Origin: a virus | Direction: 5' to 3' (one strand) | DNA length: 64,000 bases | Virus record (IMG/VR): IMGVR_UViG_3300022073_000094 | In this document: positions 1-50,554 of the stretch, one piece after another | Layout: each line of letters begins with the position of its first letter | Numbering within the stretch: the stretch's first letter is position 1 | Notes under the pieces: model-generated | Databases searched by the model: none | The model's input: the letters and a program-made list of their open reading frames with translations, nothing else | What the model was told of the DNA's origin: nothing | Translations under genes and position numbers: made by a program

Positions 1-1
1 A

Positions 2-874
2 TTAAGAATCAGCCTCCTCTTTATGATTAATATTGAAGTAAGTATCACGCAATGAAGTTGTTTTATTTTCAATTAAATCAGGATAAACATGTTGCTCACT
101 TAAACCTTTAAATAAGCGTCTTAATGTTTTTAATTTTTTAATTGCAATTGAATTTTTATTAATATCAATAATTTGATATTGTGCATCAATATAGTTTTTT
201 GCTTTTTCAAAATCTTCATCTGTGAAAGTTAAAAATATTAAATCTTGTGATGTAGGCTGATTCATATCAACATCTTGTACAAATTTACCATTTTTTAAAA
301 ATAAAGCACGGTCACATATGAGTTCAATATCTTCTAATTTATGACTTGATATTAAAACTTTAACTTGATATTGTTTTGTAATTTCTTTAATTGTATTTAA
401 AACATCAATTGATCCATCTGGATCCATTCCATTAGTCGGCTCATCTAATATTAAATATTGAGGCTTACTAATCATTGAAACGGCAATTGCAAGTTTTTGT
501 TTCATACCTAAAGAATATTTTTTAACTTTTTTATGAATATAATCTTGCATACCAAAAGCTTCAATAATATGATTTGCATAATCTTTATCAAAGCCAGAAC
601 CGAGTATTTTACTAAATACTTTTAAATTATTCATTCCTGTCATTTTTTGATAAAGCTTAGGATGCTCAATAAGATAACCAACATGATTATGGTTTTCAAT
701 ATCGACTGTTCCTTCATAATTTGCAATATTCCCATTCATAATCTTCATAATTGTTGTCTTACCAACACCATTCTTGCCAATTAATCCCACGATATGAGAG
801 TCATCAAATGCAAATGATAAATCATCAAGGACAAGATTATCTTTATATTTTTTTGTAACATCTTTAATATTCAT
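2..874 (-). CDS. pmtC: ABC transporter ATP-binding protein, PmtC-like (phenol-soluble modulin exporter family)
   Basis: Walker A GKNGVGKT, signature YSLGMKQ, Walker B LILDE, H-loop SSH; motifs DEPTNGMDPDGSIDVL and SLRDTYFNIN recalled from staphylococcal PmtC; own sigmaA-like promoter at ~910-940. Confidence 0.75.
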   Translation of the reverse strand: MNIKDVTKKYKDNLVLDDLSFAFDDSHIVGLIGKNGVGKTTIMKIMNGNIANYEGTVDIENHNHVGYLIEHPKLYQKMTGMNNLKVFSKILGSGFDKDYANHIIEAFGMQDYIHKKVKKYSLGMKQKLAIAVSMISKPQYLILDEPTNGMDPDGSIDVLNTIKEITKQYQVKVLISSHKLEDIELICDRALFLKNGKFVQDVDMNQPTSQDLIFLTFTDEDFEKAKNYIDAQYQIIDINKNSIAIKKLKTLRRLFKGLSEQHVYPDLIENKTTSLRDTYFNINHKEEADS

Positions 875-967
875 GCATTATCAATGCTCCTTTTTTTATT
901 TAAGATAATTATATTTTACTCTGCTTAAAAATAAATGTAAATCAATACTGTCTTACAACTGTATCAT

Positions 968-1330
968 TTATAGTAAAAAAACAAAGCTTAAAACTAATAA
1001 TATGATAATAATTGAATCAATTTTTTCTAAAATAGGCTTTTGATATTTTAGATTTTGATTGTAATGATAAATAATATCTTTAATTGCAATTGTTCGATTT
1101 ATGTTAAACAAAAGAGAATTTAGAAAAATCGCAACAAAAAACCATTTATTGAACGGCATTGACTCTTTTAAACCTAAAGCAAATGTTGATGCAATAATGA
1201 ATAGAGATAAGATAATAGGAACAAGTAAAACCCATTTTGTATTCGATTTCTTAAGTCGCATAATTGCAGCTTTTTTTTGATCCTCATCTAATGAATTGAT
1301 CAATTCATTCTCATCTTTAATGATTTTCAA
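968..1330 (-). CDS. small membrane protein, about 3 TM
   Basis: three hydrophobic stretches, RBS GGAGG upstream. Confidence 0.7.
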   Translation of the reverse strand: MKIIKDENELINSLDEDQKKAAIMRLKKSNTKWVLLVPIILSLFIIASTFALGLKESMPFNKWFFVAIFLNSLLFNINRTIAIKDIIYHYNQNLKYQKPILEKIDSIIIILLVLSFVFLL

Positions 1331-1345
1331 AGATATAAACCTCCT

Positions 1346-1669
1346 TTAGTTAATTACTTTAAACCAAATATGATAAAATTCACAATTAATTAAATCTTCT
1401 GTTTCAATTTCTTCACCACAATATTTACATTCTACAAAATCGCCATATTGTTTTAAATCATTAAAATCATGTACGACAAAATATGGGTGATCACAATTAG
1501 GACAAAGAATCTTATAAAATTTTTGTATTTTATTTTGATTAATTAATTCGTTTAGTGCTTGATCAATTTGTTCAGTTGAATATTGATTTAATTTTTTATA
1601 GAGTCCTTTATCCATTACTGAATCAAATAATTTTAAATAGTTATAAATTTCATTTTGTAATTTATTCAT
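1346..1669 (-). CDS. hypothetical protein, helical N-terminus plus zinc ribbon
   Basis: CPNC...CKYC pair; paralogous layout to 2152..2505. Confidence 0.7.
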   Translation of the reverse strand: MNKLQNEIYNYLKLFDSVMDKGLYKKLNQYSTEQIDQALNELINQNKIQKFYKILCPNCDHPYFVVHDFNDLKQYGDFVECKYCGEEIETEDLINCEFYHIWFKVIN

Positions 1670-1671
1670 TT

Positions 1672-2151
1672 TTAAATCTCCTTTTTTAATTCATTGTAAA
1701 CTTTACCAAGTAAATTTTGACCTTTCCAATTTGAAGGATCTAAAATTTTATCATCATTTTCACTTAATTTGACACCCCAAATTGCATCAAAAGGTGAAGC
1801 TTCAACAAAAATTTTATCTTTATTGTTTCTAACAAATACTTGTAATTCATCGAATTGATTGATTTTATCTTTAACAACTTCTTTCATAATATCGTATCTA
1901 ACTCTATCCCATTGTTCATTATCAAAATTTTTAACTTTTCGACCCAAACTTTTAACATAATTAGGTTGTTTTGCTTTTGTTAAAATTTGATGAGCTATTT
2001 CATAATCTTTAAAAAACATAGCTTTTCTCCACATAAAAGCTTGTTCAGAATTTGAAAACATATGTTTTTGATGCTTAAATCTAATAGGATAAAAATTCGA
2101 CATCATATCATTTTTACTAAAAAATAAAATGAATTTATCTGTAATTTTCAT
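1672..2151 (-). CDS. NADAR (YbiA/DUF1768) family hydrolase
   Basis: SNFYP, SEQAFMWRKA, KSLGRKV, EASPFDAIWG, WKGQNLLG motifs. Confidence 0.9.
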   Translation of the reverse strand: MKITDKFILFFSKNDMMSNFYPIRFKHQKHMFSNSEQAFMWRKAMFFKDYEIAHQILTKAKQPNYVKSLGRKVKNFDNEQWDRVRYDIMKEVVKDKINQFDELQVFVRNNKDKIFVEASPFDAIWGVKLSENDDKILDPSNWKGQNLLGKVYNELKKEI

Positions 2152-2505
2152 TTATAAAAACTCCTTTTTAATTTTATAAATAATTCTAATTTGATCTTTT
2201 GTATCAAATTCTTCATTAGTTAATTCACATTCATAAGTTTTTGGTATTTCTTCTTGTTTATTAGTAACAAATATTTGTTTTTCAAATGTGAAAGGACTAT
2301 AAATTGTATAATTTTTTTCTACATAGCCATTTTCTAATAAATCATTAAATAATAAATCAATAAATTCGTTAGAAAAACCAGCTCTAATAAAAGCACTTTT
2401 ATAAATATAATTATTTTTATTATATCTTGCTAGTTTTTTTAATAATAGATGATATTTATCTTGCGTTAAATTATAATTCTTAATTATTTTTTTAATATTT
2501 TCCAT
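2152..2505 (-). CDS. hypothetical protein, paralog of 1346..1669 with a degenerate zinc ribbon
   Basis: same layout (L..L...gyV.K.Y.I.[C/S]P ... ECE...EF), only one Cys left. Confidence 0.6.
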   Translation of the reverse strand: MENIKKIIKNYNLTQDKYHLLLKKLARYNKNNYIYKSAFIRAGFSNEFIDLLFNDLLENGYVEKNYTIYSPFTFEKQIFVTNKQEEIPKTYECELTNEEFDTKDQIRIIYKIKKEFL

Positions 2506-2590
2506 TAATTTAACCTCATTTCATAAGAATTATTATGTTAAATCTCGAATCATTTTATCATAAATTGGTTGTTAATTTAAATTATAACTA

Positions 2591-3379
2591 TCATAGATTT
2601 ATCTCCTTAATTTTTGCATTTAAATGTTCATGTGGGTAGCCTAATGCATTTGTATAAAATTGATATTCTTTAAATTTATAATTCTTAATTTCATGCACAT
2701 GACCAAAAAAATTGATAGGTGCAATTAATTCTGAAACATCACATCTATAGCTTCCAATTGATCCATCATTTAAATGTCTTAAATGAGTATCAGTTGTAAT
2801 AATTGGATAATGTGAAATAAAAACATCTAAATTTTTATTTTTTAATTTATAATATTGTTCTAAATCTTTTTGATTGAATTCTGAAACATCATTATTAATA
2901 TATTTTTTATCATTCATAAATAAGTTATAAAATGTAATTTCTTCTTCAGTTTTTGGTAAACTTGTCATTGTTAAGCCACCAAAGACTTTGTTTTTATATT
3001 CATAATAATTACTAGTAAAGCTACTATGAAAAATTACAACATTTTTTAAATCATAACATTGTGCAATTAAGTTTTTAATTCGATTATAACTCGTTTGATG
3101 TTTGTGTAATTGATTTTTTGAAATTAAATAATAATCGTGATTACCTGGAACGAAAAAGACAACATTGAAGTATTGACTAAATGTTTTTAAAATTAATCTT
3201 GAAATTTCATTATAATGAGATAAATCTCCTGCTATAATTAATACATCATGATCTGTTAATTGACTTTTATTAATTAAATTAATAATAAAATTTTCAATTG
3301 TTTGATAATATTTATTTTTATTTTTATTATATTTAATATGATGATCTATATGTAGATCATTAATATATGCAATATTCAT
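2591..3379 (-). CDS. calcineurin-like metallophosphoesterase
   Basis: DLH, GDLS, GNHD, SHYP, GHVH metal-binding motifs. Confidence 0.9.
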   Translation of the reverse strand: MNIAYINDLHIDHHIKYNKNKNKYYQTIENFIINLINKSQLTDHDVLIIAGDLSHYNEISRLILKTFSQYFNVVFFVPGNHDYYLISKNQLHKHQTSYNRIKNLIAQCYDLKNVVIFHSSFTSNYYEYKNKVFGGLTMTSLPKTEEEITFYNLFMNDKKYINNDVSEFNQKDLEQYYKLKNKNLDVFISHYPIITTDTHLRHLNDGSIGSYRCDVSELIAPINFFGHVHEIKNYKFKEYQFYTNALGYPHEHLNAKIKEINL

Positions 3380-3411
3380 AATTTAGTCCCTCATTTATTA
3401 AAATCATAAAA

Positions 3412-4059
3412 TTAATTTAAACACACAAATGTATTTAAAAATTGTTGTAATTGATATTCATTTTTTAATTTATTTTTATAAGCTTGATTGATTTTAAATT
3501 GATCATTATCATAAATTAAAAAATGTCTTTTAAAATTAGTTAGTGACATTAAGTCAAATTGATTCTTTGTTTTTGAATAATCGATATATTGTTCACTTAA
3601 AAAATCAGTGTAATTAATATAATAATTTTTAATAATAAATGCATTTATTAAATAATAAGATGTGATACCTTCATTACAATGATTAATAAAATTTATATTG
3701 TAATTTGATGATTTAACTAATTTATTTATTAATAAAGCTGTTTTTGTTGTTGGTTCATTCATATATTCAAATTGATCAATGACAAATAAAGCCTCATCAA
3801 AAATAAAATTAAAATAATCGTTAAAATAACTTTTATATGAAAAGCATTTATTTTGAGTTTTATGATTAATATATTGTCGAAACGACATAATAATTATGTC
3901 AACGCCTAGTTCATAGCTAAAATTTTTCCATTTATTTTTTATTGTTGAATCATTTGTTGGAATTAAAACAAAAATATAATTAATATCATTCATTTCAACT
4001 ATTTGTTGAATAATTTTAGTTTTATTTTTGAATTGATCTTCATGGTAAAATAAATGCAT
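3412..4059 (-). CDS. hypothetical protein
   Basis: ORF track; start moved to MHLFYH because of RBS GAGGTG and a family promoter at ~4090-4118. Confidence 0.65.
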   Translation of the reverse strand: MHLFYHEDQFKNKTKIIQQIVEMNDINYIFVLIPTNDSTIKNKWKNFSYELGVDIIIMSFRQYINHKTQNKCFSYKSYFNDYFNFIFDEALFVIDQFEYMNEPTTKTALLINKLVKSSNYNINFINHCNEGITSYYLINAFIIKNYYINYTDFLSEQYIDYSKTKNQFDLMSLTNFKRHFLIYDNDQFKINQAYKNKLKNEYQLQQFLNTFVCLN

Positions 4060-4228
4060 GAATAACACCTCATTAAGTAATATAATATTATAATACCATA
4101 TTACTATTGAGATGTACATTAATTATTATTTAAAATTTTGCTGAGTAAGTTGTTTTTTAATCTCATTCTTAGATACTATAAAAAAGTTATCACCCTTTAT
4201 TAGAGTGATAACTAAAAGTAAATAAATC

Positions 4229-5542
4229 TTAAACTGAACAGCTTGTACATTCTTCTACACTTAATAATTTATTACGTGTATAGTATAATGATTTTAAGCC
4301 TTTATAATGAGCATATACATAATATTTTGCTAATTCACTTGTTGATATATCTGAGTTAACATATAATATTGTAGATATGCCTTGATCGACATGTTGTTGT
4401 ATAATACTCATCAAATCAATTAAATTCATTTGATCAATATTAAATGCTGATTTATAATACCACATTGTTTGTGGTGATAAAAATGGCATTGGATAAAATG
4501 TTTCTGAATCGCCATATTTACGTCTTTCAATCTGATCGACAATCGGCATAACAGAGCTTGTTGCATTTTGTACATAAGAAATACTTTGAGTTGGAGCAAG
4601 TGCTAATCTATATGCACTATATAAGCCATACTCTTGTACTTCTTCTTTAAGTTGTAACCAATCTTGTTGACGTGGAATTTCAATCTCTTTAAAAAGATCT
4701 TTTACTTTTTGTGATTTAGGTTCAAATGATTGAGTAATATATTTTTCAAAATATGAACCATCAGCATAACTTGATAAATGGAAGTCTTTATACGTTTCAC
4801 CACGTTCTTTTGCAATTTGCATTGAACGTTTTAATGAATAAAAGTTCATCATCATAAAGAATGTATTAACAAAATCTTTTGCTTCTTCTGATTCATATTG
4901 AATTTGATTTTTAGCTAAATAACCATTTAAGTTAAGAGCACCTAACCCAACAGAATGAAGCTCTTCATTTGCTTTTTTTACACCTGGTGCAACTTTAACA
5001 TTTGATTCATCACTTACAGCTGTTAAAGCGTCCATACCTGTAAATACTGATTCTTTAAACTTTCCTGATTCCATCACGTTTACAATGTTTAATGAGCCTA
5101 AGTTACAAGAAATATCTCGTTTAATATCATCTTGACTATAATAATCATTAATGACTGATGTTTCTTGTAGCTGGTATATCTCTGTACAGAGATTGCTCAT
5201 TTTGATTTGTCCAATATTTGAATTTGCATGTACTTTGTTTGCATTATCTTTAAACATTAAATATGGATAACCTGATTGTAATTGTGTTTGAGCAATTTTA
5301 TTTAACATTTCACGTGCATTGACTGAACGTTTATATATATTCGGATTTTGTACGAGTTCTTCATACATTTCACTCATATTCATATCATCAAGTTCAACGC
5401 CATATTCTTTATATACTGTTCTTGGCCCAAACATATATAATTTTTTATTTTCTTTTGCAAGTTTAAAAAATTGATCAGGTATAATTAAACCAATTGATAG
5501 AGTTGAAAGTCTCAATGTTTCATCTGCGTTAACTTTTTTTGT
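4229..5542 (-). CDS. nrdE: class Ib ribonucleotide reductase alpha subunit, exon 3
   Basis: resumes ACA AAA AAA GTT (TKKVNADE) after intron-terminal G at 5543; SNLCTE and SCNLGS catalytic motifs; C-terminal CTSCSV. Confidence 0.95.
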   Translation of the reverse strand, partial: TKKVNADETLRLSTLSIGLIIPDQFFKLAKENKKLYMFGPRTVYKEYGVELDDMNMSEMYEELVQNPNIYKRSVNAREMLNKIAQTQLQSGYPYLMFKDNANKVHANSNIGQIKMSNLCTEIYQLQETSVINDYYSQDDIKRDISCNLGSLNIVNVMESGKFKESVFTGMDALTAVSDESNVKVAPGVKKANEELHSVGLGALNLNGYLAKNQIQYESEEAKDFVNTFFMMMNFYSLKRSMQIAKERGETYKDFHLSSYADGSYFEKYITQSFEPKSQKVKDLFKEIEIPRQQDWLQLKEEVQEYGLYSAYRLALAPTQSISYVQNATSSVMPIVDQIERRKYGDSETFYPMPFLSPQTMWYYKSAFNIDQMNLIDLMSIIQQHVDQGISTILYVNSDISTSELAKYYVYAHYKGLKSLYYTRNKLLSVEECTSCSV

Positions 5543-6629
5543 CACTTTACCTAAAATTTTCATTTTAGAGCGGACTATATCATAATTCTAGTCGTTACAC
5601 TAAAATTCCTTGCGCTTTAATTTAAAAGATTTATATGAGTTAATTTCACTCAAGACTTACCTGTATAAATAAGGCTCTACTCTACTCAATTATATTGTAA
5701 TAAGTCCTCTCGACGTAATACTCATCTTTCGATAGTCTCTACACCTTCATAATAATAAATATCTTTAAAAGCATTTTTATCAGCTCTATATGTGACTTGT
5801 GATCGAGTTAAACCTAAAGCTTTTCCACATTGATTTAAAGAATCATATATTTTACCATAAGCTACAACTTTTTTACGATTTGGGCTTGATTTAATCATCT
5901 TTTGTTTAGTTTGTTCTGATCTTTTACTACCTAAATGAATATTTCTAATTTTTTGCTTAGTTTCGTCTGTATGTTTATGACCATCAAATCGTGTTGTAAT
6001 TTTAGATCTCATCATTGCCATATGTTGATCATTTTGACCTTGATTAATTTCTGATAATTTTTTCTTTACCTCAGCGGTATGTGTTTTACCCCACATGGGA
6101 TTTAATTCGCCATCGGCTCCTCCTCCTTTTGCATATTTATAAATATTCAAACACAAATCATCATTATAATATTTATTAAGTAAAACTTGTTCTAAATTTT
6201 GAATGTCATTTCGATTATTAGATTGACAAATATTAATAATTTTAAAGTTAAAATCATTAATATTATTTGTTTCATTAAATAATTTTTGTAAAAATTTATT
6301 ATGATGATTATTTTTAATAAGTAAACGCTTATGAATTTTAATTCTTTTTTCTATATTTAATGATCCCCCAATATAATATTTATTAGATTTGATATGAGTA
6401 ATAATATATGTTCCAGCTGTCAAGATTTAACACCACCTTTTTTTTTTTGTTATTTAAAATATTTATTATTATGCTTGGCACGGTATTATCCTCTATTTAA
6501 ATTTATTTAAATGTAGACTCTCTTAGTCAGTTTTTTAAACTGATACCGTTAGCTGAATATTAATATTCAACACCGTTTTATATACGTTCACAAGGTTTTC
6601 ATTAATTTAAATTAATGGGACAACTATTT
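5543..6629 (-). mobile_element. group I intron 2 in nrdE (1087 nt)
   Basis: 5' exon ends in U (GAT), intron ends in G; P7 halves GAGACTA and ATATAGTCC; removal restores LLD|TKK in frame. Confidence 0.92.
5722..6423 (-). CDS. intron-encoded GIY-YIG homing endonuclease with NUMOD3 repeats
   Basis: GTYII...YYIG motif; NPMWGKTHT and GHKHTDETKQK repeats; ends VETIER across P7. Confidence 0.9.
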   Translation of the reverse strand: MTAGTYIITHIKSNKYYIGGSLNIEKRIKIHKRLLIKNNHHNKFLQKLFNETNNINDFNFKIINICQSNNRNDIQNLEQVLLNKYYNDDLCLNIYKYAKGGGADGELNPMWGKTHTAEVKKKLSEINQGQNDQHMAMMRSKITTRFDGHKHTDETKQKIRNIHLGSKRSEQTKQKMIKSSPNRKKVVAYGKIYDSLNQCGKALGLTRSQVTYRADKNAFKDIYYYEGVETIER

Positions 6630-17883: not shown

Positions 17884-18071
17884 TTTATTTGCTTCCTTTC
17901 AATCTTCTAATTTTATTTTATATAAAAATAATATCATAATACTAATTTTAAGTAAATAATAAAGATCTTACTTGATAACATGTAAGATCTCTATAGTAAG
18001 ACAATCAAATCAAATTAATAAAACTAATATGAAATTATATCTTAACTTTATTTATAATGTTTGACTTACTA

Positions 18072-18109
18072 GGTATTGAAAATGTAACTAAGATATTTAC
18101 TTAATATTA
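18072..18109 (-). repeat. 38-bp remnant of the IS607-type right end
   Basis: GGTATTGAAAATGTAACTAAGATATTTACTTAATATTA, near-identical to 16031-16068. Confidence 0.8.
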
Positions 18110-18294
18110 AAATGATAAATTTGATCTCCATCTTTATCATCATTTGCAATTTTTAATAAGTTTTTTAATTCGTTTTTATTATGATTTAACAAATCAGATG
18201 TAAATTCATCTCGTCTAAAATCAATGGCATACAACCAACTATTTTCTTGTAAAGAACTTATTTTACCTAATTTTTTTGCCATTACTATTTTCAC
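18097..18294 (-). CDS. small hypothetical protein; stop codon lies inside the right-end remnant
   Basis: GTG start with RBS AGGAAGG. Confidence 0.55.
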   Translation of the reverse strand: MKIVMAKKLGKISSLQENSWLYAIDFRRDEFTSDLLNHNKNELKNLLKIANDDKDGDQIYHFNIK

Positions 18295-39527: not shown

Positions 39528-40286
39528 ATGATGACAATTACAAAAAGTCAAAGAAAATTGAAAGATGATTTAGTTCAACTTATGATACATGATATTGATT
39601 ATTATATACTCAGAGACTCTTATCAGAATGATGAATCTAATTTTGAAGAGAGTATTGATTTAAGTTTAAATGCTTTAATTGAGCAAGACTTAGTTGACCA
39701 AGAGATACTTAATGTTTTATCAAATATGATAAATGTTGAAAAATATAATGATCCTAATCAAACTTTTGTCTCAATTGAAAATATGTCACAATTTATAAAT
39801 TTGCAAGGTTATAGTACACAAGCTAACCGTTCATTTCAAGATAAAAATCAAGACATTATTTTAAAGACAATTTTTGAATTATTAAATCATCAATTTCACT
39901 TTCAACTCGAAATAATTGACCAAATCACTAAAAAGTTTGAACCTTTTTTAAGTGATGATTTAAAAAGTCATTTAAAAATTGATATTTATCAAAATACACA
40001 AACAAAGGAATATCAACTTATATTTAATATTGATAGTAATGATGCGAAAAAATATCAACAACTTTTAACTGAATTAGAGCAAAGTATTCAACTTTATCAT
40101 ACTTATTATTATCAATTTATAAAAGCAAATCGATGCTTGTTGTATCTAATTAAATTTTTAAATGCACATAATAATACAGAATTTCAACAAGTGAGTACGA
40201 TTTATTTTCCAACTTATATTGAAATGTTTGACAATATCGAATTTGTTGCATCATGTAACGTAAATTCAAGAAAGGAAGATGATTAA
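39528..40286 (+). CDS. hypothetical protein
   Basis: RBS GAGGTG. Confidence 0.75.
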   Translation: MMTITKSQRKLKDDLVQLMIHDIDYYILRDSYQNDESNFEESIDLSLNALIEQDLVDQEILNVLSNMINVEKYNDPNQTFVSIENMSQFINLQGYSTQANRSFQDKNQDIILKTIFELLNHQFHFQLEIIDQITKKFEPFLSDDLKSHLKIDIYQNTQTKEYQLIFNIDSNDAKKYQQLLTELEQSIQLYHTYYYQFIKANRCLLYLIKFLNAHNNTEFQQVSTIYFPTYIEMFDNIEFVASCNVNSRKEDD

Positions 40287-40288
40287 AA

Positions 40289-40606
40289 ATGGCTAATCAA
40301 TTTGCAACAAGTACAATTAATGATAAAGAACAATTTGTCATAGATCATTATGAACATATGACATATAAAGAAATGGGTCAAAAACTAGATTTATCTCGTG
40401 GCTCAATTCAATATATTATGAATAAATTTAATTTAAAAAAGACACGTTATTCAGTACAAGATTATCGTTTTAGAGTTGGCGAGCTTGAAGATTTTTTACA
40501 TGATTGGCAGTCACATTTTGACAGTGTCAATGATTTATCTAAAAGTGATATAATAAATTTAATTGATCGATTTAACACACAATCTGAAGAATTACTCCAA
40601 AGCTAA
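40289..40606 (+). CDS. HTH DNA-binding protein
   Basis: MTYKEMGQKLDLSRGSIQYIM. Confidence 0.7.
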   Translation: MANQFATSTINDKEQFVIDHYEHMTYKEMGQKLDLSRGSIQYIMNKFNLKKTRYSVQDYRFRVGELEDFLHDWQSHFDSVNDLSKSDIINLIDRFNTQSEELLQS

Positions 40607-40634
40607 AAATAGTGTTGAGAGGGGGTGTAAATCG

Positions 40635-41348
40635 ATGAATAATTTTGGTCGTCAACGTCAAAATCCTTACTCTTGGATTGTTCCTGGAGTTATTGTCATT
40701 TTAGATTTGTTGATGTATTTACTTGCTTATACAAAGCAACCAAAAGGTTTAATTAAAGGTTTTTCAGACAAAACTTTAATTTATGCAGGTGCACTTAATG
40801 GTGACAGTCCTTTTTATCGTATTATGACAAGCGTATTATTAAGTAGTTCGTTGTATATTTTAATTATTTCGTTAATCATTCTTATTTTAACTTGGGTTTA
40901 TATGGAGAAAATGTATGGCTTTGGCTTATATGTTGCATCATTACTTTTATTAATTGTGATTGCAGGCTTTTTAGCTCAACATTTAACGCCTGAACATGTG
41001 ACAGCAAGTTTAATCACAGCTTTAGCAGGTTTAGTAGGCATGCTTTTAGCTGCTTATATTAAATTAAAAGAGCAAGACATAATGATTATTTTGATTATTA
41101 ATGGGGTTCTTTTAATTGCATCATTTTTTGTTCCGGGTCATGAAGCAGTCAATATTATTATCACAATTATTATGTTTGTGATTGGTATTGTATTAGGCTT
41201 TATTGCAATCATGTTAAGCTATAAAATTGCTGAAATAGAAGAAACAAATCGTTATAAACAACAATTAAAAGAAGAAGAAAAAAGACGTAAAGAAGCTGAA
41301 CGTCAACAAAAACAAATTGATAAAATTCGTCGTAAACAAAGCAAGTAG
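40635..41348 (+). CDS. rhomboid-fold membrane protein lacking catalytic Ser/His (pseudoprotease)
   Basis: GA....FYRIMTS (WR-loop position), MEKMYG, GLVGML; GASG replaced by SLIT and no TM6 His; basic coiled-coil tail. Confidence 0.55.
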   Translation: MNNFGRQRQNPYSWIVPGVIVILDLLMYLLAYTKQPKGLIKGFSDKTLIYAGALNGDSPFYRIMTSVLLSSSLYILIISLIILILTWVYMEKMYGFGLYVASLLLLIVIAGFLAQHLTPEHVTASLITALAGLVGMLLAAYIKLKEQDIMIILIINGVLLIASFFVPGHEAVNIIITIIMFVIGIVLGFIAIMLSYKIAEIEETNRYKQQLKEEEKRRKEAERQQKQIDKIRRKQSK

Positions 41349-41446
41349 ATTTATATTTTATCTATCTACTTGCCATTTTTTTATTTACTCTTAAGTAATA
41401 CTATGATACTATTAACTTATAATTAAAAAGAAAGAGGTTTAAACAT

Positions 41447-42289
41447 ATGAATACAGAAGTATTACGATTAATGAGATTTATAGAGAATCTTAATACACAA
41501 TATTTTAAGGAGATTAATATCTCTCGTTCTCAGCTTTATGAGATCAAAAGAGATCCGCGTTTACTTTATAAATCACGATTAGAAACAGTTTTAAAGTTAT
41601 ATGATTATATGCATCAGCATGAAGAATTAAAACATGAACAAGTTAAAAATGTGATTGATGATGAACAATTTCAAAGCGCTTTAAAAGATGAAGAAGAAAC
41701 TATTAAAGCATTAAATTTAGATCATTATGTTGGCGTTGACTTAGGCTCTAAACATCTTATTGCAGCATCAAATAATGATTTAAGTCAAACATTTATTGCT
41801 AAAACTCAAAATATTAATCGTCTGACTAATATTTATAATAGAGAGCGTAAACAAGCACAAAGATCAGAATTTAAAACGCTTGCAACAACCTTATGTAATA
41901 AATTTACAACTCAAGTTGAGGGTGAGATTAATTATCAAGTTAATCAATTGCTTAAAGAGTTTGATGACGATGCAATCTTTGTTGTAGGTGATCAATGCTT
42001 TAGAAATGGTCAAGCAGTAAAAGATCAAACTTCATCTAATTATATTATTTGGTCATTAATTATTAAGCAATTTAGACGTAAGCTTGAGGATCAAAATAGA
42101 TTAATTATTATTAATGAGTCGGGTAGCTCAATTAAATGTCCAAATTGTCATAAATCTAAAAAATCAAATCGCACAATTGATAATCGATTTCATTGTAAAA
42201 GTTGTGGCTTTAAACATGAATCTGACGACGTTGTTGCAGCTGTAAATATTTTAAATAAATATTTAGCAAAAAACATGGACAAATTATAG
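41447..42289 (+). CDS. HTH fused to a truncated TnpB-like RuvC/zinc-ribbon domain
   Basis: N-terminal ISRSQLYEIK HTH; VGVDLG (RuvC-I), INESGSS, CPNC..CKSC, DDVVAAVNI (RuvC-III); only 280 aa; no tnpA or IS ends; family promoter. Confidence 0.75.
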   Translation: MNTEVLRLMRFIENLNTQYFKEINISRSQLYEIKRDPRLLYKSRLETVLKLYDYMHQHEELKHEQVKNVIDDEQFQSALKDEEETIKALNLDHYVGVDLGSKHLIAASNNDLSQTFIAKTQNINRLTNIYNRERKQAQRSEFKTLATTLCNKFTTQVEGEINYQVNQLLKEFDDDAIFVVGDQCFRNGQAVKDQTSSNYIIWSLIIKQFRRKLEDQNRLIIINESGSSIKCPNCHKSKKSNRTIDNRFHCKSCGFKHESDDVVAAVNILNKYLAKNMDKL

Positions 42290-42304
42290 AGGAAGTGTTT
42301 TGAG

Positions 42305-42802
42305 ATGAAAATTTCTTATGAAGATATTTCAATTTTTTATTCAATCACACATAATCAAATTTTTTGGTTTGCAATTATTCTATTTGTGATTGCATGCATC
42401 TTTATATCTTTTAGAGTTTATGCAAAAAGTTTAAAAAAAGCAGCAGTTTTTAATATGATTTCAATTTTGTTTGGATCAGTTTGTGTAATTGTACTTATGA
42501 TCGCTCTTTTATTGACGATTAATGAATGCCATAATTCATATAAGGTCACGATAAAAGGTACACAACAACCTGAAAGTGTGTTTGTTTCAAATGATCAAAA
42601 GCTTTTAATTTTTAACACACAAAATCAGAATGTGATGCTTAAAGTGAGTGCTAGTTCTAAGGTTAAGAAAAATGATGACATAAAGCTTAAAACAATTCAA
42701 CCTATTATTATGAAAAAGAATAAAATTGATCAACATAAAGACATTACACTTAATGAATTTATGACAAATTATAAAGTTATCAAATATGATAAAGAGGAGT
42801 GA
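42305..42802 (+). CDS. 2-TM membrane protein
   Basis: two N-terminal TMs. Confidence 0.75.
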   Translation: MKISYEDISIFYSITHNQIFWFAIILFVIACIFISFRVYAKSLKKAAVFNMISILFGSVCVIVLMIALLLTINECHNSYKVTIKGTQQPESVFVSNDQKLLIFNTQNQNVMLKVSASSKVKKNDDIKLKTIQPIIMKKNKIDQHKDITLNEFMTNYKVIKYDKEE

Positions 42803-43209
42803 AAAAGATGGAATTAAATTTAAATGATTTTAAAATTGATCACAATGAGATCGCACAAACAATTCAATATATAATTAATCATAAAACAATGTTAATCACA
42901 CTTATCATATTTAGTGTGCTTGCTCTCATATTTATGATGTTATTTATGATCATTATTTCATACGACACTGACGATGGTCATAAACGTAATTATGGTAAAG
43001 ATCATGTAGGGTATATGCATTATTTATACGATGACTTAAGACAACTTGGTTATTCTCATGAAGAAGCAACTCAGCGTGTGACTTTTGCAGGACATTATTG
43101 TAATGCTAAAAAGAAAAGAGTAAAGCTCCCACAACGCGTTGTCAATTATGTAAAAAGTCAAGATTTTAATCCACGTAATTACTTTGGACGGCTTAATTAT
43201 TACGAATAG
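42799..43209 (+). CDS. single-TM membrane protein
   Basis: GTGA overlap, one TM. Confidence 0.7.
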   Translation: MKKMELNLNDFKIDHNEIAQTIQYIINHKTMLITLIIFSVLALIFMMLFMIIISYDTDDGHKRNYGKDHVGYMHYLYDDLRQLGYSHEEATQRVTFAGHYCNAKKKRVKLPQRVVNYVKSQDFNPRNYFGRLNYYE

Positions 43210-43224
43210 AAAGGTTTGATAAAA

Positions 43225-43350
43225 ATGATTCAACTTATTTTTGTGTTCCCACTCTTAATTTTATTTATCTTGCTTTCAGTTTTAAGCATTAAAGGAAATA
43301 AGTCAATTGATGTAGAAAAGTCTAAAAAAGAAGAAGATAAGAAGAAATAA
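43225..43350 (+). CDS. 41-aa membrane peptide MIQLIFVFPLLILFILLSVLSIKGNKS...KKK (not in ORF track)
   Basis: RBS GAAAGG, TM plus charged tail. Confidence 0.6.
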   Translation: MIQLIFVFPLLILFILLSVLSIKGNKSIDVEKSKKEEDKKK

Positions 43351-43386
43351 AATGATTGATATTAGCTTTAATTAAAGCATTATTTT

Positions 43387-43451
43387 AGCCCCCTGCTCGG
43401 TACCTTAAAAGTCTGATTCGCAGACCGCTTAGAGTACTTAAAAAGGGGGCT
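43387..43451 (-). repeat. dispersed imperfect palindrome P3
   Basis: reverse complement reads CCCCC..AAGTACTCTAAGCGGTCTGC..CAGACTT..GGTAC..GGGGG, near P7. Confidence 0.8.
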
Positions 43452-43707
43452 TTTATAACGGTTAATATTTATGCTTACTATGATCTCTTATAAAGATATA
43501 TCTAAAATATACACTAAAAAATCAAAGTATAAATTTTTTTCTTTATCCTTTACTCATCATTAATCAAGATATATAATTTAAATTAACCTTCTTTTTATGT
43601 ATTAAGAGCAGATTATTTATCTAAATAGTCTGCTCTTTTTTCATGTCTTATTTAAGCACTTTATTTCAATCTCTTAATTAATCATTCCATCAATTACATA
43701 TTTTTTT

Positions 43708-43727
43708 AGTATATATTTTAAATATAC
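43708..43727. promoter_or_regulatory. operator-like motif AGTRTAT(AT)TTTARRTATAY (example; about 7 copies)
   Basis: also ~27941-27965 (rc), 43494-43520 (rc), ~48420, 56657, 57627, 63530. Confidence 0.55.
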
Positions 43728-43765
43728 TTTTACATATTATAAAAAAAGAGAGCAAGCTTAAGTGC

Positions 43766-44311
43766 TTACTCTTCAATTTTTAACGCATCTTTTTTAGGTT
43801 TATTGACAATAAATAATTGATCATGGTCACCTTTATATTCATGATGTTCTTTCCAATTGTGATTTGGATAAGTGATTATCACATTATAATGATTATAGTA
43901 GTCATTGACAGTATCAGGATCCCTCAATTGTTCAAGATTAAATCCATGTTTAATTTTAATTGAAGCTTTAGGTTTTTTTAAAGTTGAATCAAATTTTTCT
44001 TTAACATGATTTGCACTTACGTTCATCAATTTATCTTTATGATGACGATGATAAATAATTTGTATTGTTTCGCTAGGCATTCTATAATATGTCATTCGAC
44101 CTCGTTCTGTTTTTTTAATTACTTCACCATTTTTAATATTTTCAACACTTAAAGGAGTCACTGTAAAATTAAGTTTTTGTTCTTCATTAGTGATTTTAGG
44201 ATTATTATATTCTGAAAATTCAGATACAATAATCGCAGTCAGACTAATAATCAATAGTCCTATAACTAAACATCCTACTATAAGTGTATGAGATTCATCT
44301 TTTTTATTCAT
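43766..44311 (-). CDS. membrane-anchored extracellular protein
   Basis: N-terminal TM, RBS GAAAGGA. Confidence 0.75.
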   Translation of the reverse strand: MNKKDESHTLIVGCLVIGLLIISLTAIIVSEFSEYNNPKITNEEQKLNFTVTPLSVENIKNGEVIKKTERGRMTYYRMPSETIQIIYHRHHKDKLMNVSANHVKEKFDSTLKKPKASIKIKHGFNLEQLRDPDTVNDYYNHYNVIITYPNHNWKEHHEYKGDHDQLFIVNKPKKDALKIEE

Positions 44312-48541: not shown

Positions 48542-49126
48542 ATGAAAGCATCAGAAGTAATGAAAACATTAAGAATTTCACGTTCTTCTTTAGCTAATTA
48601 TAAGGCTGACGGAAGAATAAGAGCAACTAAACGATATAATGGGCTATATGATTATTGTGATGAAGATGTTTATCGATTAATAAATCAAAATCAGCCTAGA
48701 ATGAATGTGATTTATTCTAGAGTTTCTACTCGTAAACAAAAGAAAGATTTAGAAAATCAAGAAAATCTTCTTAAACAATATTGTTTAAATCAAGGTCTTA
48801 TTATTAATAGAAGTTATAAAGATATTGATTCAGGTATTTCTTTTGAAAATCGTAAAGAATTTTTTGAATTGCTAGATTTAGTAATTAATTATAAAGTTGA
48901 TAAAATAATTATTACTTATAAAGATCGATTAAGCAGAGTAGGTTTTGAATTATTTAAAACTTTATTTGAAAAATTTGGAACGGAGATTATTGTTATTTCA
49001 GAGTTAGGATCTGAAAAGATTGATTCAGAAGAAATTTTTGAAGAAATCGTTTCTTTATTGCATTGCTATTCAATGAAATTATATACTAAGAGAAAAAATA
49101 AGCAGATTAAGGATCTAATTAAATGA
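48542..49126 (+). CDS. tnpA: IS607 serine transposase
   Basis: N-terminal MerR-like HTH, IYSRVSTRKQKKDLENQ catalytic motif, KDRLSRVGF. Confidence 0.93.
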   Translation: MKASEVMKTLRISRSSLANYKADGRIRATKRYNGLYDYCDEDVYRLINQNQPRMNVIYSRVSTRKQKKDLENQENLLKQYCLNQGLIINRSYKDIDSGISFENRKEFFELLDLVINYKVDKIIITYKDRLSRVGFELFKTLFEKFGTEIIVISELGSEKIDSEEIFEEIVSLLHCYSMKLYTKRKNKQIKDLIK

Positions 49127-50331
49127 AATTAGTTGAAATTCATAAGATTAATCGCAAGTCAAAATATTATTCTTTGTTTGAAGAGTTATGTAAAGAGTCA
49201 AATTCTTTATATAATCAAGCTTTATTTAAAGTTAAGCAATCTTTAAATAGAGAAAATAAATGGATGTTTTATTCAGATCTTAATCAATTTTGTAAAAATC
49301 GACCTGATAAATATAATAATTATAGGCGTTTACCCGCTCAATGTTCTCAACAAACTCTTAGACTATTAGATCAAAATTTAAAAGCATATCGTAATAGTAT
49401 TAAAGATTGGTCTAAAAATAAGTCTAAATATCTCGGTAAGCCAAAGTTTCCTAATTTTAAAAAATCTGGAGGCTTATTTCAGCTTATCTTAACAAGTCAA
49501 CAAGTGAAATATGATAGAGAATCATTACTTCTTAGATTTCCTAAAAATTTTAATTCATTTACTTTAAAATTAAGACAAAATCATACGACAAAAATTAATC
49601 AAGTTAGAATATTACCTAAAATTGATTGTTTTAAAATTGAGATTGTGTATGAAATAGAAGCAATTACAACTCAGAATCTTCATCATAATGTTGCATCAAT
49701 AGATCTTGGTCTTGAAAATTTAACTACTTTGGCGTTTTCAAATTGCAAAAGACCTTTAATTTATAAAGGAAGACGTCTTATCAAGATCAATCATAATTAT
49801 AATAGACAAATTAAGAAATATCAGTCAATTTTAAATAAAACTCAAAAGAAACAAAGAAGCAGTAAAAGATTAAGATCATTATATTTAAAAAGAAATAATA
49901 AAATAGAAGATCAAATGCATAAGATAAGCAAATCAATAGTTGATTGTCTTTTAGAGAATGACATCTCAATATTAATTATTGGGCATAACGTTAATCAAAA
50001 GCAAAAATCGACGTTAAAGAATTTTGTATCTTTGCCAATCTTCAAATTAATTCATTTCTTAAAATATAAATGTGAAATTAGAGGTATAAAAGTAGTTGAT
50101 ATAAATGAGTCTTATACATCAGGTACTTCTTTTTTAGACAAAGAAGATCCGATAAAAGAAAATTACAATAAGTTTAGAAGAATTAAAAGGGGCTTATTTA
50201 AGTCAAATAAAGGGCGCTTAATCAATAGCGACGTTAATTCTGCTTATCAAATTATGAAAAAATTCGATAAAAATTTAAATATTCAATATAATCATCAAAT
50301 TTTTAATCCACGAGTGATGTTTATTCAATAA
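49123..50331 (+). CDS. tnpB: TnpB RNA-guided nuclease
   Basis: SIDLG (RuvC-I), NESYTS, NSDVNSA (RuvC-III). Confidence 0.92.
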   Translation: MKLVEIHKINRKSKYYSLFEELCKESNSLYNQALFKVKQSLNRENKWMFYSDLNQFCKNRPDKYNNYRRLPAQCSQQTLRLLDQNLKAYRNSIKDWSKNKSKYLGKPKFPNFKKSGGLFQLILTSQQVKYDRESLLLRFPKNFNSFTLKLRQNHTTKINQVRILPKIDCFKIEIVYEIEAITTQNLHHNVASIDLGLENLTTLAFSNCKRPLIYKGRRLIKINHNYNRQIKKYQSILNKTQKKQRSSKRLRSLYLKRNNKIEDQMHKISKSIVDCLLENDISILIIGHNVNQKQKSTLKNFVSLPIFKLIHFLKYKCEIRGIKVVDINESYTSGTSFLDKEDPIKENYNKFRRIKRGLFKSNKGRLINSDVNSAYQIMKKFDKNLNIQYNHQIFNPRVMFIQ

Positions 50332-50554
50332 ACCAGCTTAGGATAGCGCTTTTGGTATAAGCGTGTTAGTTTAAATGATATAAAACGAAAGTTCTCTTAG
50401 ATAGTAAAGTAATTAAGTTTGAAAAGCTATTAAGTTATCATTAAACGACAAAGCAAATCGTTTTAACGTTAGAATGTTCAACTAGTATTTTAATTTTGAT
50501 ACAAAGTAAATATTTTAATCAGATTTGTGATACCTTAAGCTACCTTATCAATTT
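50300..50554 (+). ncRNA. predicted TnpB omega RNA (scaffold to 50534, guide from the flank)
   Basis: about 200 nt non-coding between the tnpB stop and the right end; conserved blocks shared with the orphan copies. Confidence 0.65.

Follow-up and report, generated by a model that had tools for sequence, protein, structure and literature searches.

The window, a 64,000-nucleotide stretch of viral DNA (IMG/VR record IMGVR_UViG_3300022073_000094), contains a gene for a short protein that joins an HTH domain to the C-terminal half of TnpB. Its position and the features in and around this mini-TnpB gene are given in Table 1.

Table 1 Features of the mini-TnpB locus and of the full-length TnpB gene in the same window.
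Feature	Position	Strand	Details
Terminator-like hairpin and T-run, end of the upstream gene (40563-41348)	41334..41380	+	inverted repeat, 22-nt arms
Promoter-like site	41384..41412	+	-35 TTTACT 41384-41389, 17-nt spacer, TG 41404-41405, -10 TACTAT 41407-41412
Shine-Dalgarno GAGG	41434..41437	+	9 nt ahead of ATG; conserved in alignment of relatives
CDS of the HTH-RuvC/TNB protein P0001	41447..42289	+	280 aa; full-length homologs exist
Five-helix HTH domain, Aca11 / AcrIIA15-NTD-like, aa 1-62	41447..41632	+	domain model, structure and profile matches
Variable linker, predicted disordered, aa 63-90	41633..41716	+	pLDDT <50 at residues 63-88
TnpB-type RuvC with inserted CCCC zinc ribbon (TNB), aa 91-280	41717..42286	+	profiles, fold match
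Catalytic codons	D98 41738-41740; E224 42116-42118; D261 42227-42229	+	translation
Zinc ribbon C231-C253	42137-42205	+	C231-x-x-C234 and C250-x-x-C253
485-bp segment with 165-aa membrane-protein ORF (42305-42802)	42281..42765	+	bounded by direct repeat ACAAATTATA
Full-length IS607-type TnpB (window)	49123-50331		

The upstream gene is ended by a terminator-like hairpin, so that the mini-TnpB gene starts a new transcription unit. The hairpin is retained in the relatives L017 and L018, with altered stem bases in L018. A previous examination of the letters of this DNA, here called the sequence-only reading, had let the gene begin at 41384. At this position lies the -35 hexamer of the putative promoter, and the coding sequence begins at 41447. 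The same reading placed the gene under a promoter shared by a family. The putative promoter, TTTACT-17 nt-TGn-TACTAT, is kept in the alignment of L017, L018, L004 and L010, though their proteins are just 48-62% identical, and the box ATGATAYTATTAA recurs (34 matches against 14 expected) and is found upstream of several other genes in the window. RNA-library contigs covering the gene are 2-6 kb long and possibly represent DNA carry-over; they cannot show transcription, its start site or its strand.

All the motifs from which a TnpB core had been recognized are located in the 280-residue translation: V-D-L-G at residues 97-100 (with D98), N-E-S-G-S-S at 223-228 (with E224), the two CxxC pairs and the RuvC-III motif D-D-V-V-A-A-V-N-I at 260-268 (with D261). 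The protein matches the Pfam family PF07282 (Cas12f1-like TNB) above cut-off, with an E value of 7e-11. The NCBIfam profile guided_TnpB (NF040570) aligns residues 79-271 with profile positions 181-389 of 389, that is with its C-terminal half only, and scores 56.2 bits against a curated cut-off of 100 bits. In the AF2 model, residues 90-278 superpose on residues 184-378 of ISDra2 TnpB (PDB 8H1J) with Z 12.3, identifying the C-terminal part as the RuvC and TNB fold; Cas12f superposes with Z 15, and the TnpB/Cas12f fold matches span about 165-180 residues. In ISDra2 TnpB, WED comprises residues 1-12 and 117-176 and REC residues 13-116, hence the matched span is exactly RuvC plus TNB (PMC10097598). 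The model has no counterpart of the WED/REC region, as the sequence-only reading had proposed; its N-terminus consists of the 62-residue helical HTH and the disordered linker.

The active site is well conserved. D98 and the four cysteines are invariant among 33 diverged members of the family, and E224, R242, N246 and D261 are conserved in at least 90% of them. Two members carry N or H at position 261, with only the neighbouring D260 left. The protein thus resembles TnpB and Cas12f in its RuvC fold with a D-E-D triad, its inserted CCCC ribbon and its RuvC-III signature D-x-x-A-A-x-N-I. Contrary to TnpB, the mini family is devoid of WED, REC, a 3' omega RNA gene, TnpA and IS ends, and has an unrelated HTH.

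The HTH domain is modelled with a pLDDT of 90.6. Its best structural match is Aca11 (Z 7.8, rmsd 2.0 over 60 residues) and its second the AcrIIA15 N-terminal domain on palindromic DNA (Z 7.3, rmsd 1.9 over 57). Both head the lists of the two aligners, Foldseek and VIA, and a profile search against PDB sequences picks them again, weakly (E 0.04 and 0.57). With AcrIIA13-15 and Aca11 (8JFR, 8JFO, 9LX2) it shares an HTH of about 60 residues and five helices (Z 7.3-7.8), at a sequence identity of 13-18%. AcrIIA15 also shows the same order of HTH, flexible linker and effector in staphylococcal mobile DNA; its C-terminal effector is a Cas9 inhibitor, in contrast to the nuclease core of the mini protein. 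Pfam finds no family at cut-off for the HTH or the isolated N-terminal domains, returning sub-threshold noise only. By hhalign, the 233-aa homolog from plasmid pSSAP1 contains the HTH (probability 94%), whereas the full-length TnpB P0002 does not, and a search with the HTH profile matches almost exclusively PF07282-bearing proteins. The linker differs in length and sequence across the family. As a lead only, a feature search of a protein atlas points loosely to small regulators of the HTH_26/HTH_3 type.

Full-length homologs of the protein occur at 97, 62, 48-50 and 40% identity. Fifteen proteins are found at E<=1e-30 and some 35 short ones at E<=1e-20; canonical TnpBs of 350-500 residues first appear in the family search near E 1e-14. 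Clustered at 50% identity, the proteins that display the layout of HTH, linker and RuvC/TNB, 203-344 residues long, make up about 35 clusters, and the layout is maintained down to 23-30% identity. A tree places all 35 short proteins in one branch with support 95, together with 3 further sequences, and the mini family is nested inside the TnpB tree. Compared with L017, the whole gene has a dN/dS of 0.055; the HTH comes to 0.058, RuvC-TNB to 0.019 and the linker to 0.78, showing that purifying selection acts on both folded domains. The joining of an HTH to the C-terminal half of TnpB, rightly noted before as an unusual architecture, is therefore real and conserved, and not a recent non-conserved fusion. 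Descent from the window's own IS607-type TnpB was considered and rejected: the two proteins are just 27% identical over 85 residues and sit on separate tree branches.

A megablast of positions 40000-44000 against phage and plasmid collections gives no match; scanning with the subclade alignment recovers no relative in isolate genomes and a single distant match in IMG/VR. We found no description of the HTH-TnpB-core architecture or of the repA-linked gene in a literature search of incomplete coverage, a weak sign of novelty.

Staphylococcal mobile DNA carries the mini-TnpB gene in its backbone or as an accessory gene, outside any transposon. In the window, the nearest tnpA (48542-49126) is part of a separate, full IS607-type element, which agrees with the previous remark that neither tnpA nor IS ends lie nearby. 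More generally, no adjacent tnpA, IS ends or omega-RNA-like sequence occur with any member examined. The gene is single-copy and syntenic: its upstream neighbours are syntenic with those of L004 at 26-70% identity, the mini gene itself being 48% identical, and it occupies the same position in L017, L018, L005, L006 and L008. It looks domesticated, as described before, in that the transposon context is absent and the position syntenic.

A second setting is found on plasmids of coagulase-negative staphylococci (CoNS), where parA is followed by repA on the opposite strand and then, 19-80 nt behind, by the mini gene (seven of the eight sampled). There, it trails repA and lacks a separate promoter. 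The collinear relatives sampled all carry the mini gene and related S. aureus RepA_N plasmids are without it, in what is a small sampling; the gene is therefore not needed for replication. Neither full-length TnpB nor tnpA occurs in the mini-bearing stretches examined of L004, L011 and L015 (15-19 kb each) or of seven sampled plasmids; the eighth, L001, has just one IS200/IS605 tnpA, about 4 kb off. Pfam and PHROGs return nothing informative on the neighbouring ORFs, and we see no partner gene conserved between the clades of the window and of the plasmids.

Altogether, we propose that the mini-TnpB proteins are TnpB-derived nucleases, tethered or regulated by an HTH and independent of RNA, that form a discrete family maintained by selection; we give this reading a probability of about 0.5. 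The WED and REC half is replaced by an HTH of the Aca11 / AcrIIA15-NTD type, and the RuvC site and the TNB ribbon are intact. DNA is probably found by protein contact and not by a guide RNA. That loss of WED makes the protein RNA-independent had been put forward in the sequence-only reading as a fallback, and is now the favoured reading.

We infer DNA binding by the HTH, catalysis and RNA independence along the following lines. The HTH would bind a specific double-stranded DNA site, as its structural look-alikes bind inverted repeats as dimers; in AcrIIA15, dimerization occurs via the N-terminal domain, which binds inverted repeats (PMC10901769). The flexible linker would let the HTH tether or regulate the RuvC nuclease, and the latter would be active without omega RNA. 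In large phage-like elements such as the window, the gene has its own putative promoter and a constant location; in CoNS plasmids it lies directly behind repA. The protein may serve in competition between mobile elements, in exclusion or in homing; it may also process DNA of its own element or be an autoregulated effector nuclease. In its most specific form, which we advance tentatively and with less confidence than the general one, the protein would be a TnpB descendant that lost RNA guidance and was re-targeted by a sequence-specific HTH, yielding a protein-guided site-specific nuclease or nickase directed against competing mobile DNA or used in processing the element's own.

An upstream palindrome was evaluated as operator and is convincing in the L004 subclade only, where a perfect 22-bp palindrome overlaps the transcription start. 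No clear target site of the HTH was found, and this palindrome is the only lead.

The palindrome also bears on a different division of labour between the domains, in which the HTH does no more than repress, in the manner of an Aca protein, the gene's own promoter or the rep operon, and RuvC/TNB is an untargeted effector that degrades host or competitor nucleic acid, or acts in anti-defence or abortive infection. The layout would be parallel to AcrIIA13-15, in which an N-terminal domain of this kind is joined to an effector of unrelated origin. The domains structurally nearest to the HTH are autorepressors, which speaks for such an autoregulated effector nuclease, as do the palindrome of the L004 subclade, the flexible linker and the modular domains. 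However, the window version of the palindrome is degenerate, pairing at just 8 of 11 positions, and the plasmid genes, trailing repA, have no own promoter to repress. An untargeted nuclease should moreover be toxic, yet no conserved immunity partner adjoins the gene. We consider this explanation rather unlikely.

If the protein were still RNA-guided, it would use a non-canonical or trans-supplied RNA, such as the orphan omega-like units of the window, or would act as a subunit with full-length TnpB. The RuvC alpha1/alpha2 helices, which in TnpB touch part of the omega RNA scaffold (PMC10097598), are indeed retained in the mini protein, and in the window, L008 and L013 no more than a few kb separate the mini gene from a full-length TnpB. 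But WED and REC, the domains that bind the TAM duplex, the omega RNA pseudoknot and the guide-target heteroduplex (PMC10097598), are absent. The two orphan omega-like units, which had been suggested to pair with the mini protein, share homology with the 3' end and flanking DNA of the window's full-length TnpB (50305-50538), as well as of the full-length TnpB in L008; their natural partner is thus full-length TnpB, and no omega-like sequence adjoins any mini gene. The stretches of L004, L011, L015 and seven plasmids described above moreover have no full-length TnpB or tnpA. Nor does the gene have conserved non-coding DNA on its flanks: the next ORF begins 16 nt past its stop, and Rfam finds no match over 41200-43300. 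RNA guidance is accordingly improbable. A gene-less gap of 1.3 kb behind tandem mini genes in L013, tried as an RNA locus, is a tRNA cluster.

An analogy with TldR had been drawn as well, and it fails in its essential point. TldRs have a mutated or deleted RuvC active site and have often lost the zinc finger, with WED/REC and the guide RNA kept (Wiegand et al., bioRxiv 10.1101/2023.11.30.569447). Like TldR and dCas12f-sigmaE, the mini protein is a TnpB descendant outside a transposon, without tnpA and LE/RE and in a fixed non-transposon context. Unlike TldR, it has an intact RuvC and zinc finger, no WED/REC and no guide seen. It is thus not of the TldR type, its features being the inverse: an apparently live nuclease without the guide-holding half.

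The same evidence weighs on the idea of a plain HTH transcription factor, a protein-guided counterpart of TldR in which RuvC/TNB is a non-catalytic scaffold or sensor. The HTH fold is typical of repressor families and regulators arose repeatedly from TnpB; nonetheless about 33 diverged clusters preserve the D-E-D triad, the TNB arginine and the zinc ligands, residues that known TnpB-derived regulators lose, and dN/dS is lower in RuvC-TNB (0.019) than in the HTH or the linker. Together this makes the idea very improbable. Finally, a decaying, 5'-truncated IS605/IS607 tnpB remnant still open by chance, to which the NCBI label 'transposase' of some members and the score below the NCBIfam TnpB cut-off might point, is scarcely credible for a gene with its own putative promoter and ribosome-binding site, a syntenic position, strong purifying selection, an architecture held to 23-30% identity and an acquired, folded and conserved N-terminal domain that full-length TnpB does not have.

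The IS630/Tc1 DDE transposases and free-standing phage HTH homing endonucleases are alike to the mini family, as we read it, in that a small HTH tethers a metal-dependent nuclease to DNA. There is no homology to them beyond the generic RNase H fold. Contrary to these enzymes, the mini family lacks inverted repeats and target duplications and does not occur in multiple copies, and in the small sampling of close relatives it does not look patchy.

To our knowledge, all characterised TnpB descendants (the Cas12 types, Fanzor, TldR and dCas12f-sigmaE) retain the RNA-guide apparatus and vary in their action at the target. If our reading is true, the mini family represents the opposite outcome, with the catalytic core kept and the guide apparatus giving way to a protein module that binds DNA. 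Such a path would run opposite to those from TnpB to Cas12 and from TnpB to TldR, both of which keep the guide. It would also bear on the modularity of the RuvC/TNB core and on whether this core can act without an R-loop. The unstudied conserved backbone gene behind repA in CoNS plasmids may influence plasmid competition or maintenance, and a core of about 190 residues, compared to roughly 400 for TnpB/Cas12f, may appeal to protein engineers.

Two counterpoints to the RNA-independent nuclease concern its mechanism. The retained RuvC alpha1/alpha2 helices, which in TnpB contact omega RNA, may still bind RNA. The RuvC sites of TnpB and Cas12 cut single strands exposed through guide-driven unwinding, and the route of a tethered RuvC to duplex DNA is puzzling without such unwinding.

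The 3' flank of the mini-TnpB gene is not conserved, because the 485-bp segment immediately after it is missing in close relatives: a contig of run X16 joins position 42280 directly to 42766.

All motifs quoted in the sequence-only reading are found in the translation of the mini gene, whose product P0001 also carries a Cas12f1-like TNB domain above the Pfam cut-off. The curated NCBIfam profile guided_TnpB aligns through its positions 181-389 (of 389) with residues 79-271; the score is 56 bits, the cut-off 100. In the AlphaFold2 model (pLDDT 77.8), residues 63-88 are disordered. The part beyond (88/92-280) superposes on RuvC and TNB of Cas12f with a Z-score of 15, and residues 90-278 on residues 184-378 of ISDra2 TnpB (Z 12.3). 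In the latter enzyme WED spans residues 1-12 and 117-176, REC 13-116, RuvC 185-326 and 360-375, and TNB 327-359, with D191, E278 and D361 as catalytic residues (PMC10097598). Read against these limits, the alignment indicates that P0001, as modelled, has the nuclease lobe of TnpB in full and lacks the recognition lobe altogether. The motifs, the Pfam match and the structural model together bear out the original description of an HTH joined to the C-terminal half of TnpB.

The N-terminal domain of P0001 matches no Pfam family at threshold. Folded alone, from a 30-sequence alignment, it is modelled with confidence (pLDDT 90.6) as a bundle of five helices. In an exhaustive structural comparison with 48,161 PDB representatives, it is closest to Aca11 (Z 7.8, rmsd 2.0 over 60 residues), then to the N-terminal domain of AcrIIA15 on palindromic DNA (Z 7.3, rmsd 1.9 over 57 residues); CUT/POU, MuB-N and XRE-type HTH domains rank lower. 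For a helical domain this small, such Z values are modest. The top nine Foldseek rows are again Aca11 and AcrIIA15, both weakly matched by a sequence profile of the domain searched against the PDB (E 0.04 and 0.57). We consider the HTH fold assignment good and homology to Aca11/AcrIIA15 plausible but unproven; 'XRE-like HTH' was a fair label. According to hhalign, the domain is absent from the full-length IS607-type TnpB of the window (probability 0.2%) and present in the 233-aa homolog from a staphylococcal plasmid (94%); the family therefore acquired it rather than deriving it from the TnpB N-terminus.

A word-indexed search returned seven full-length relatives (264-284 aa, 97-40% identity to P0001); aligned, they are most conserved over the first 55 residues and vary in the linker, and all of them retain D98, E224, D261 and the zinc ligands. 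A profile search over 1.84 billion representatives separated out a discrete group of about 35 proteins, 203-344 aa in length (E 1e-137 to 1e-20), among them one of 416 aa with a C-terminal extension; canonical TnpBs (350-500 aa) appear from E ~1e-14. An alignment of 33 proteins from this search, down to 22% identity to P0001, has the variable-length linker and RuvC/TNB module throughout and a complete N-terminal helical domain in 30. Residues G96, D98, S228 and A264 and the C-P-x-C and C-x-x-C pairs are invariant in it; E224, R242, N246, D261, N267 and I268 are kept by at least 90% of members, and the two with N or H at position 261 retain the neighbouring D260. Searched alone against longer proteins, the HTH profile matches almost exclusively PF07282-bearing members of the mini-TnpB family. 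In a maximum-likelihood tree that is built on the RuvC/TNB region and includes 46 canonical TnpBs, all 35 short proteins share one branch (support 95) with three atypical longer sequences, and the IS607-type TnpB of the window is placed elsewhere. Compared with the 97%-identical gene of locus L017, the P0001 gene has 34 synonymous and 9 non-synonymous differences: dN/dS is 0.055 overall, 0.058 in the HTH (aa 1-60), 0.78 in the linker (aa 61-92) and 0.019 in RuvC-TNB (aa 93-280). Mini-TnpB is a conserved family, not a recent fusion.

The window is low in GC (~26%) and encodes six tRNAs, a tmRNA, ribonucleotide reductase, TelA-like proteins and SF3 primase-helicase-like proteins. The phage and plasmid collections searched contain no close relative of it; DNA close to it comes mostly from indoor and built-environment metagenomes. 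To judge from the next terminator-like site on its strand, the mini gene probably heads a short operon that continues with small membrane-protein ORFs. The -10 region of its promoter-like site belongs to a recurrent box, ATGATAYTATTAA, found ~40 nt upstream of several other window genes on both strands (34 matches with at most two mismatches, against 14 expected) and probably marking a common promoter class of the element. Homologs of six genes upstream stand in the same order in locus L004 (26-70% identity; 48% for the mini gene itself), and the mini gene occupies the equivalent place in L005, L006, L008, L017 and L018. This synteny, together with a promoter-like site kept across the syntenic loci, fits vertical inheritance with the element backbone and not a mobile IS. 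The best-conserved neighbour is the 105-aa protein (70% identity to L004), which matches a PHROG 'transcriptional regulator' at E 1e-5.

Features of the window around the mini-TnpB gene and related elements
Feature	Position	Strand	Description
105-aa protein	40289-40606		two genes upstream of mini-TnpB; weak sigma-70 region 4 / HTH similarity
Terminator-like hairpin	41334-41380		5' of mini gene; closes upstream gene
Promoter-like -35, TTTACT	41384-41389		followed by 17 nt, TG and -10 TACTAT (41407-41412); sequence reading
Ribosome-binding site, GAGG			9 nt 5' of the mini-gene ATG
Mini-TnpB CDS	41447-42289	+	single ORF, 280 aa
485-bp insertion/deletion	42281-42765		right behind the mini-TnpB stop; direct repeat ACAAATTATA at bounds
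Next terminator-like site	43604-43637	as mini gene	
ATGATAYTATTAA box, examples	37861, 41403, 44416, 25856-25844(-), 51215, 54936		extended -10, TGnTAYTAT type
IS607-type unit, complete	48542-50538		serine-recombinase TnpA (48542-49126) overlapping 402-aa TnpB (49123-50331)

The family is common on plasmids of coagulase-negative staphylococci. A tblastn search of PLSDB placed it on 50 Staphylococcus plasmids, all from coagulase-negative species among the matches listed, under the annotations 'zinc ribbon domain-containing protein' or 'transposase'. Of eight plasmids inspected, seven carry parA, an opposite-strand repA, the mini gene 19-80 nt behind repA, a 91-aa ORF and often a YolD-like gene; on the eighth (L001) the mini gene adjoins par genes. 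At L002 276-3354 and in L019-L023 the module comprises parA, repA (RepA_N, opposite strand), mini-TnpB, the 91-aa ORF, the YolD-like gene and a 134-aa ORF. This module is conserved in the backbone of these plasmids, and the 91-aa ORF matches no known family. In S. aureus plasmids, the related RepA_N rep genes have no mini gene behind them, everything after repA being missing; the mini gene is therefore accessory rather than essential for replication. No adjacent tnpA was found in any mini-gene context examined; the sole nearby case, an IS200/IS605 tnpA on L001, lies 4 kb off on the other strand.

The omega RNA gene of TnpB overlaps the 3' end of the ORF and extends into the right end of the element (PMC10097598). 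Behind the mini gene the next ORF begins 16 nt past the stop codon, the 3' flank varies among relatives, and the 485-bp segment is missing from L017 and from a 6.3-kb contig of sequencing run X16. Rfam gave no match over 41200-43300, even at E≤1. This argues against a guide-RNA locus at the mini gene. The 485-bp segment carries a 165-aa membrane-protein ORF (42305-42802).

Over stretches of 63-67 nt, both orphan omega-like units (~16.0 kb and ~54.0 kb) share 75-81% identity with 50305-50538, which comprises the 3' end of the full-length TnpB gene and its flank. They resemble the corresponding flank of a full-length TnpB in L008 as well; no such similarity lies near any mini gene. Their natural partner is the full-length TnpB of the window with its TnpA, and the proposed pairing with P0001 is not upheld. 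The stretch 50305-50538 is source-like for both units and for a 48-nt remnant at 18071-18118.

The analysis shows the architecture of P0001, a catalytic site that is intact and under selection, an HTH likewise under selection, and neither a guide-RNA locus nor a transposon context. With a probability of about one half, we read P0001 as a catalytically active RuvC nuclease that works without RNA and is tethered to DNA, or else regulated, via a sequence-specific HTH. The HTH, probably dimeric, would bind DNA and there tether or regulate a RuvC domain that would be active without RNA. The chief alternative, distinctly less probable, is an RNA-independent but untargeted effector nuclease whose HTH is merely an autorepressor, as in AcrIIA15, which forms dimers via its N-terminal domain and recognises inverted repeats in the promoter of its own gene (PMC10901769). 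This alternative is favoured by a perfect 22-bp palindrome, CTATTAATTTA/TAAATTAATAG, which in the P0008/P0009 subclade (L004 8389-8410, also L009 and L010) overlaps both the -10 box and the transcription start of the mini gene and is a candidate HTH operator. However, its window counterpart is degenerate, pairing at just 8 of 11 positions, and the plasmid genes are promoter-less and repA-linked.

Guidance by an RNA supplied in trans is improbable. In TnpB, WED and REC together make up the TAM cleft, keep the pseudoknot in place and line the channel for the heteroduplex (PMC10097598); because P0001 lacks both, canonical RNA guidance is impossible. It does retain the RuvC alpha1/alpha2 helices, which in TnpB contact part of the omega RNA scaffold (PMC10097598), so some RNA binding may persist. 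The fit to the data worsens progressively from there to a non-catalytic regulator, an option still more doubtful beside the conserved catalytic residues, and on to a decaying remnant, scarcely credible for a gene with these dN/dS values.

P0001 resembles TnpB in the catalytic lobe only, and differs by its missing WED/REC, omega RNA and transposon context and its sub-cut-off curated score. TldR is defined by a RuvC that is dead and a guide apparatus that is kept, and P0001 has neither; escape from the transposon is common to both. The architecture and domestication first proposed stand, but not a TldR-like RNA-guided regulator working with the orphan omega RNAs. AcrIIA15 has the same layout of HTH, linker and effector; HTH-plus-RNase-H-fold transposases and HTH-bearing homing endonucleases are parallel by analogy only. 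The literature, partially covered, holds no description of an HTH-RuvC/TNB architecture or of the repA-linked gene; given that coverage, we rate the family as a variant of TnpB exaptation, a known kind, rather than as categorically new. As an instance of a TnpB core seemingly trading RNA guidance for a protein DNA-binding module, it is clean and testable; its activity and role are entirely inferred.

Further members occur on large contigs with TelA, FtsK, IsaA, rhomboid, MobL or tRNA genes. On a 132-kb contig (L013 6170-9089), two tandem mini-TnpB paralogs of 276 and 263 aa abut; a four-tRNA cluster follows them, and a full-length TnpB lies 2.5 kb upstream. The sequence of another member (L025) is found on contigs up to ~290 kb, and its neighbourhood looks like that of a jumbo phage. 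There, a tandem array of at least nine ORFs of ~215 aa that match no known family (1-5650) is followed by a gene for a PvuRts1I-like/SRA (modified-cytosine-dependent) endonuclease (5664-6578).
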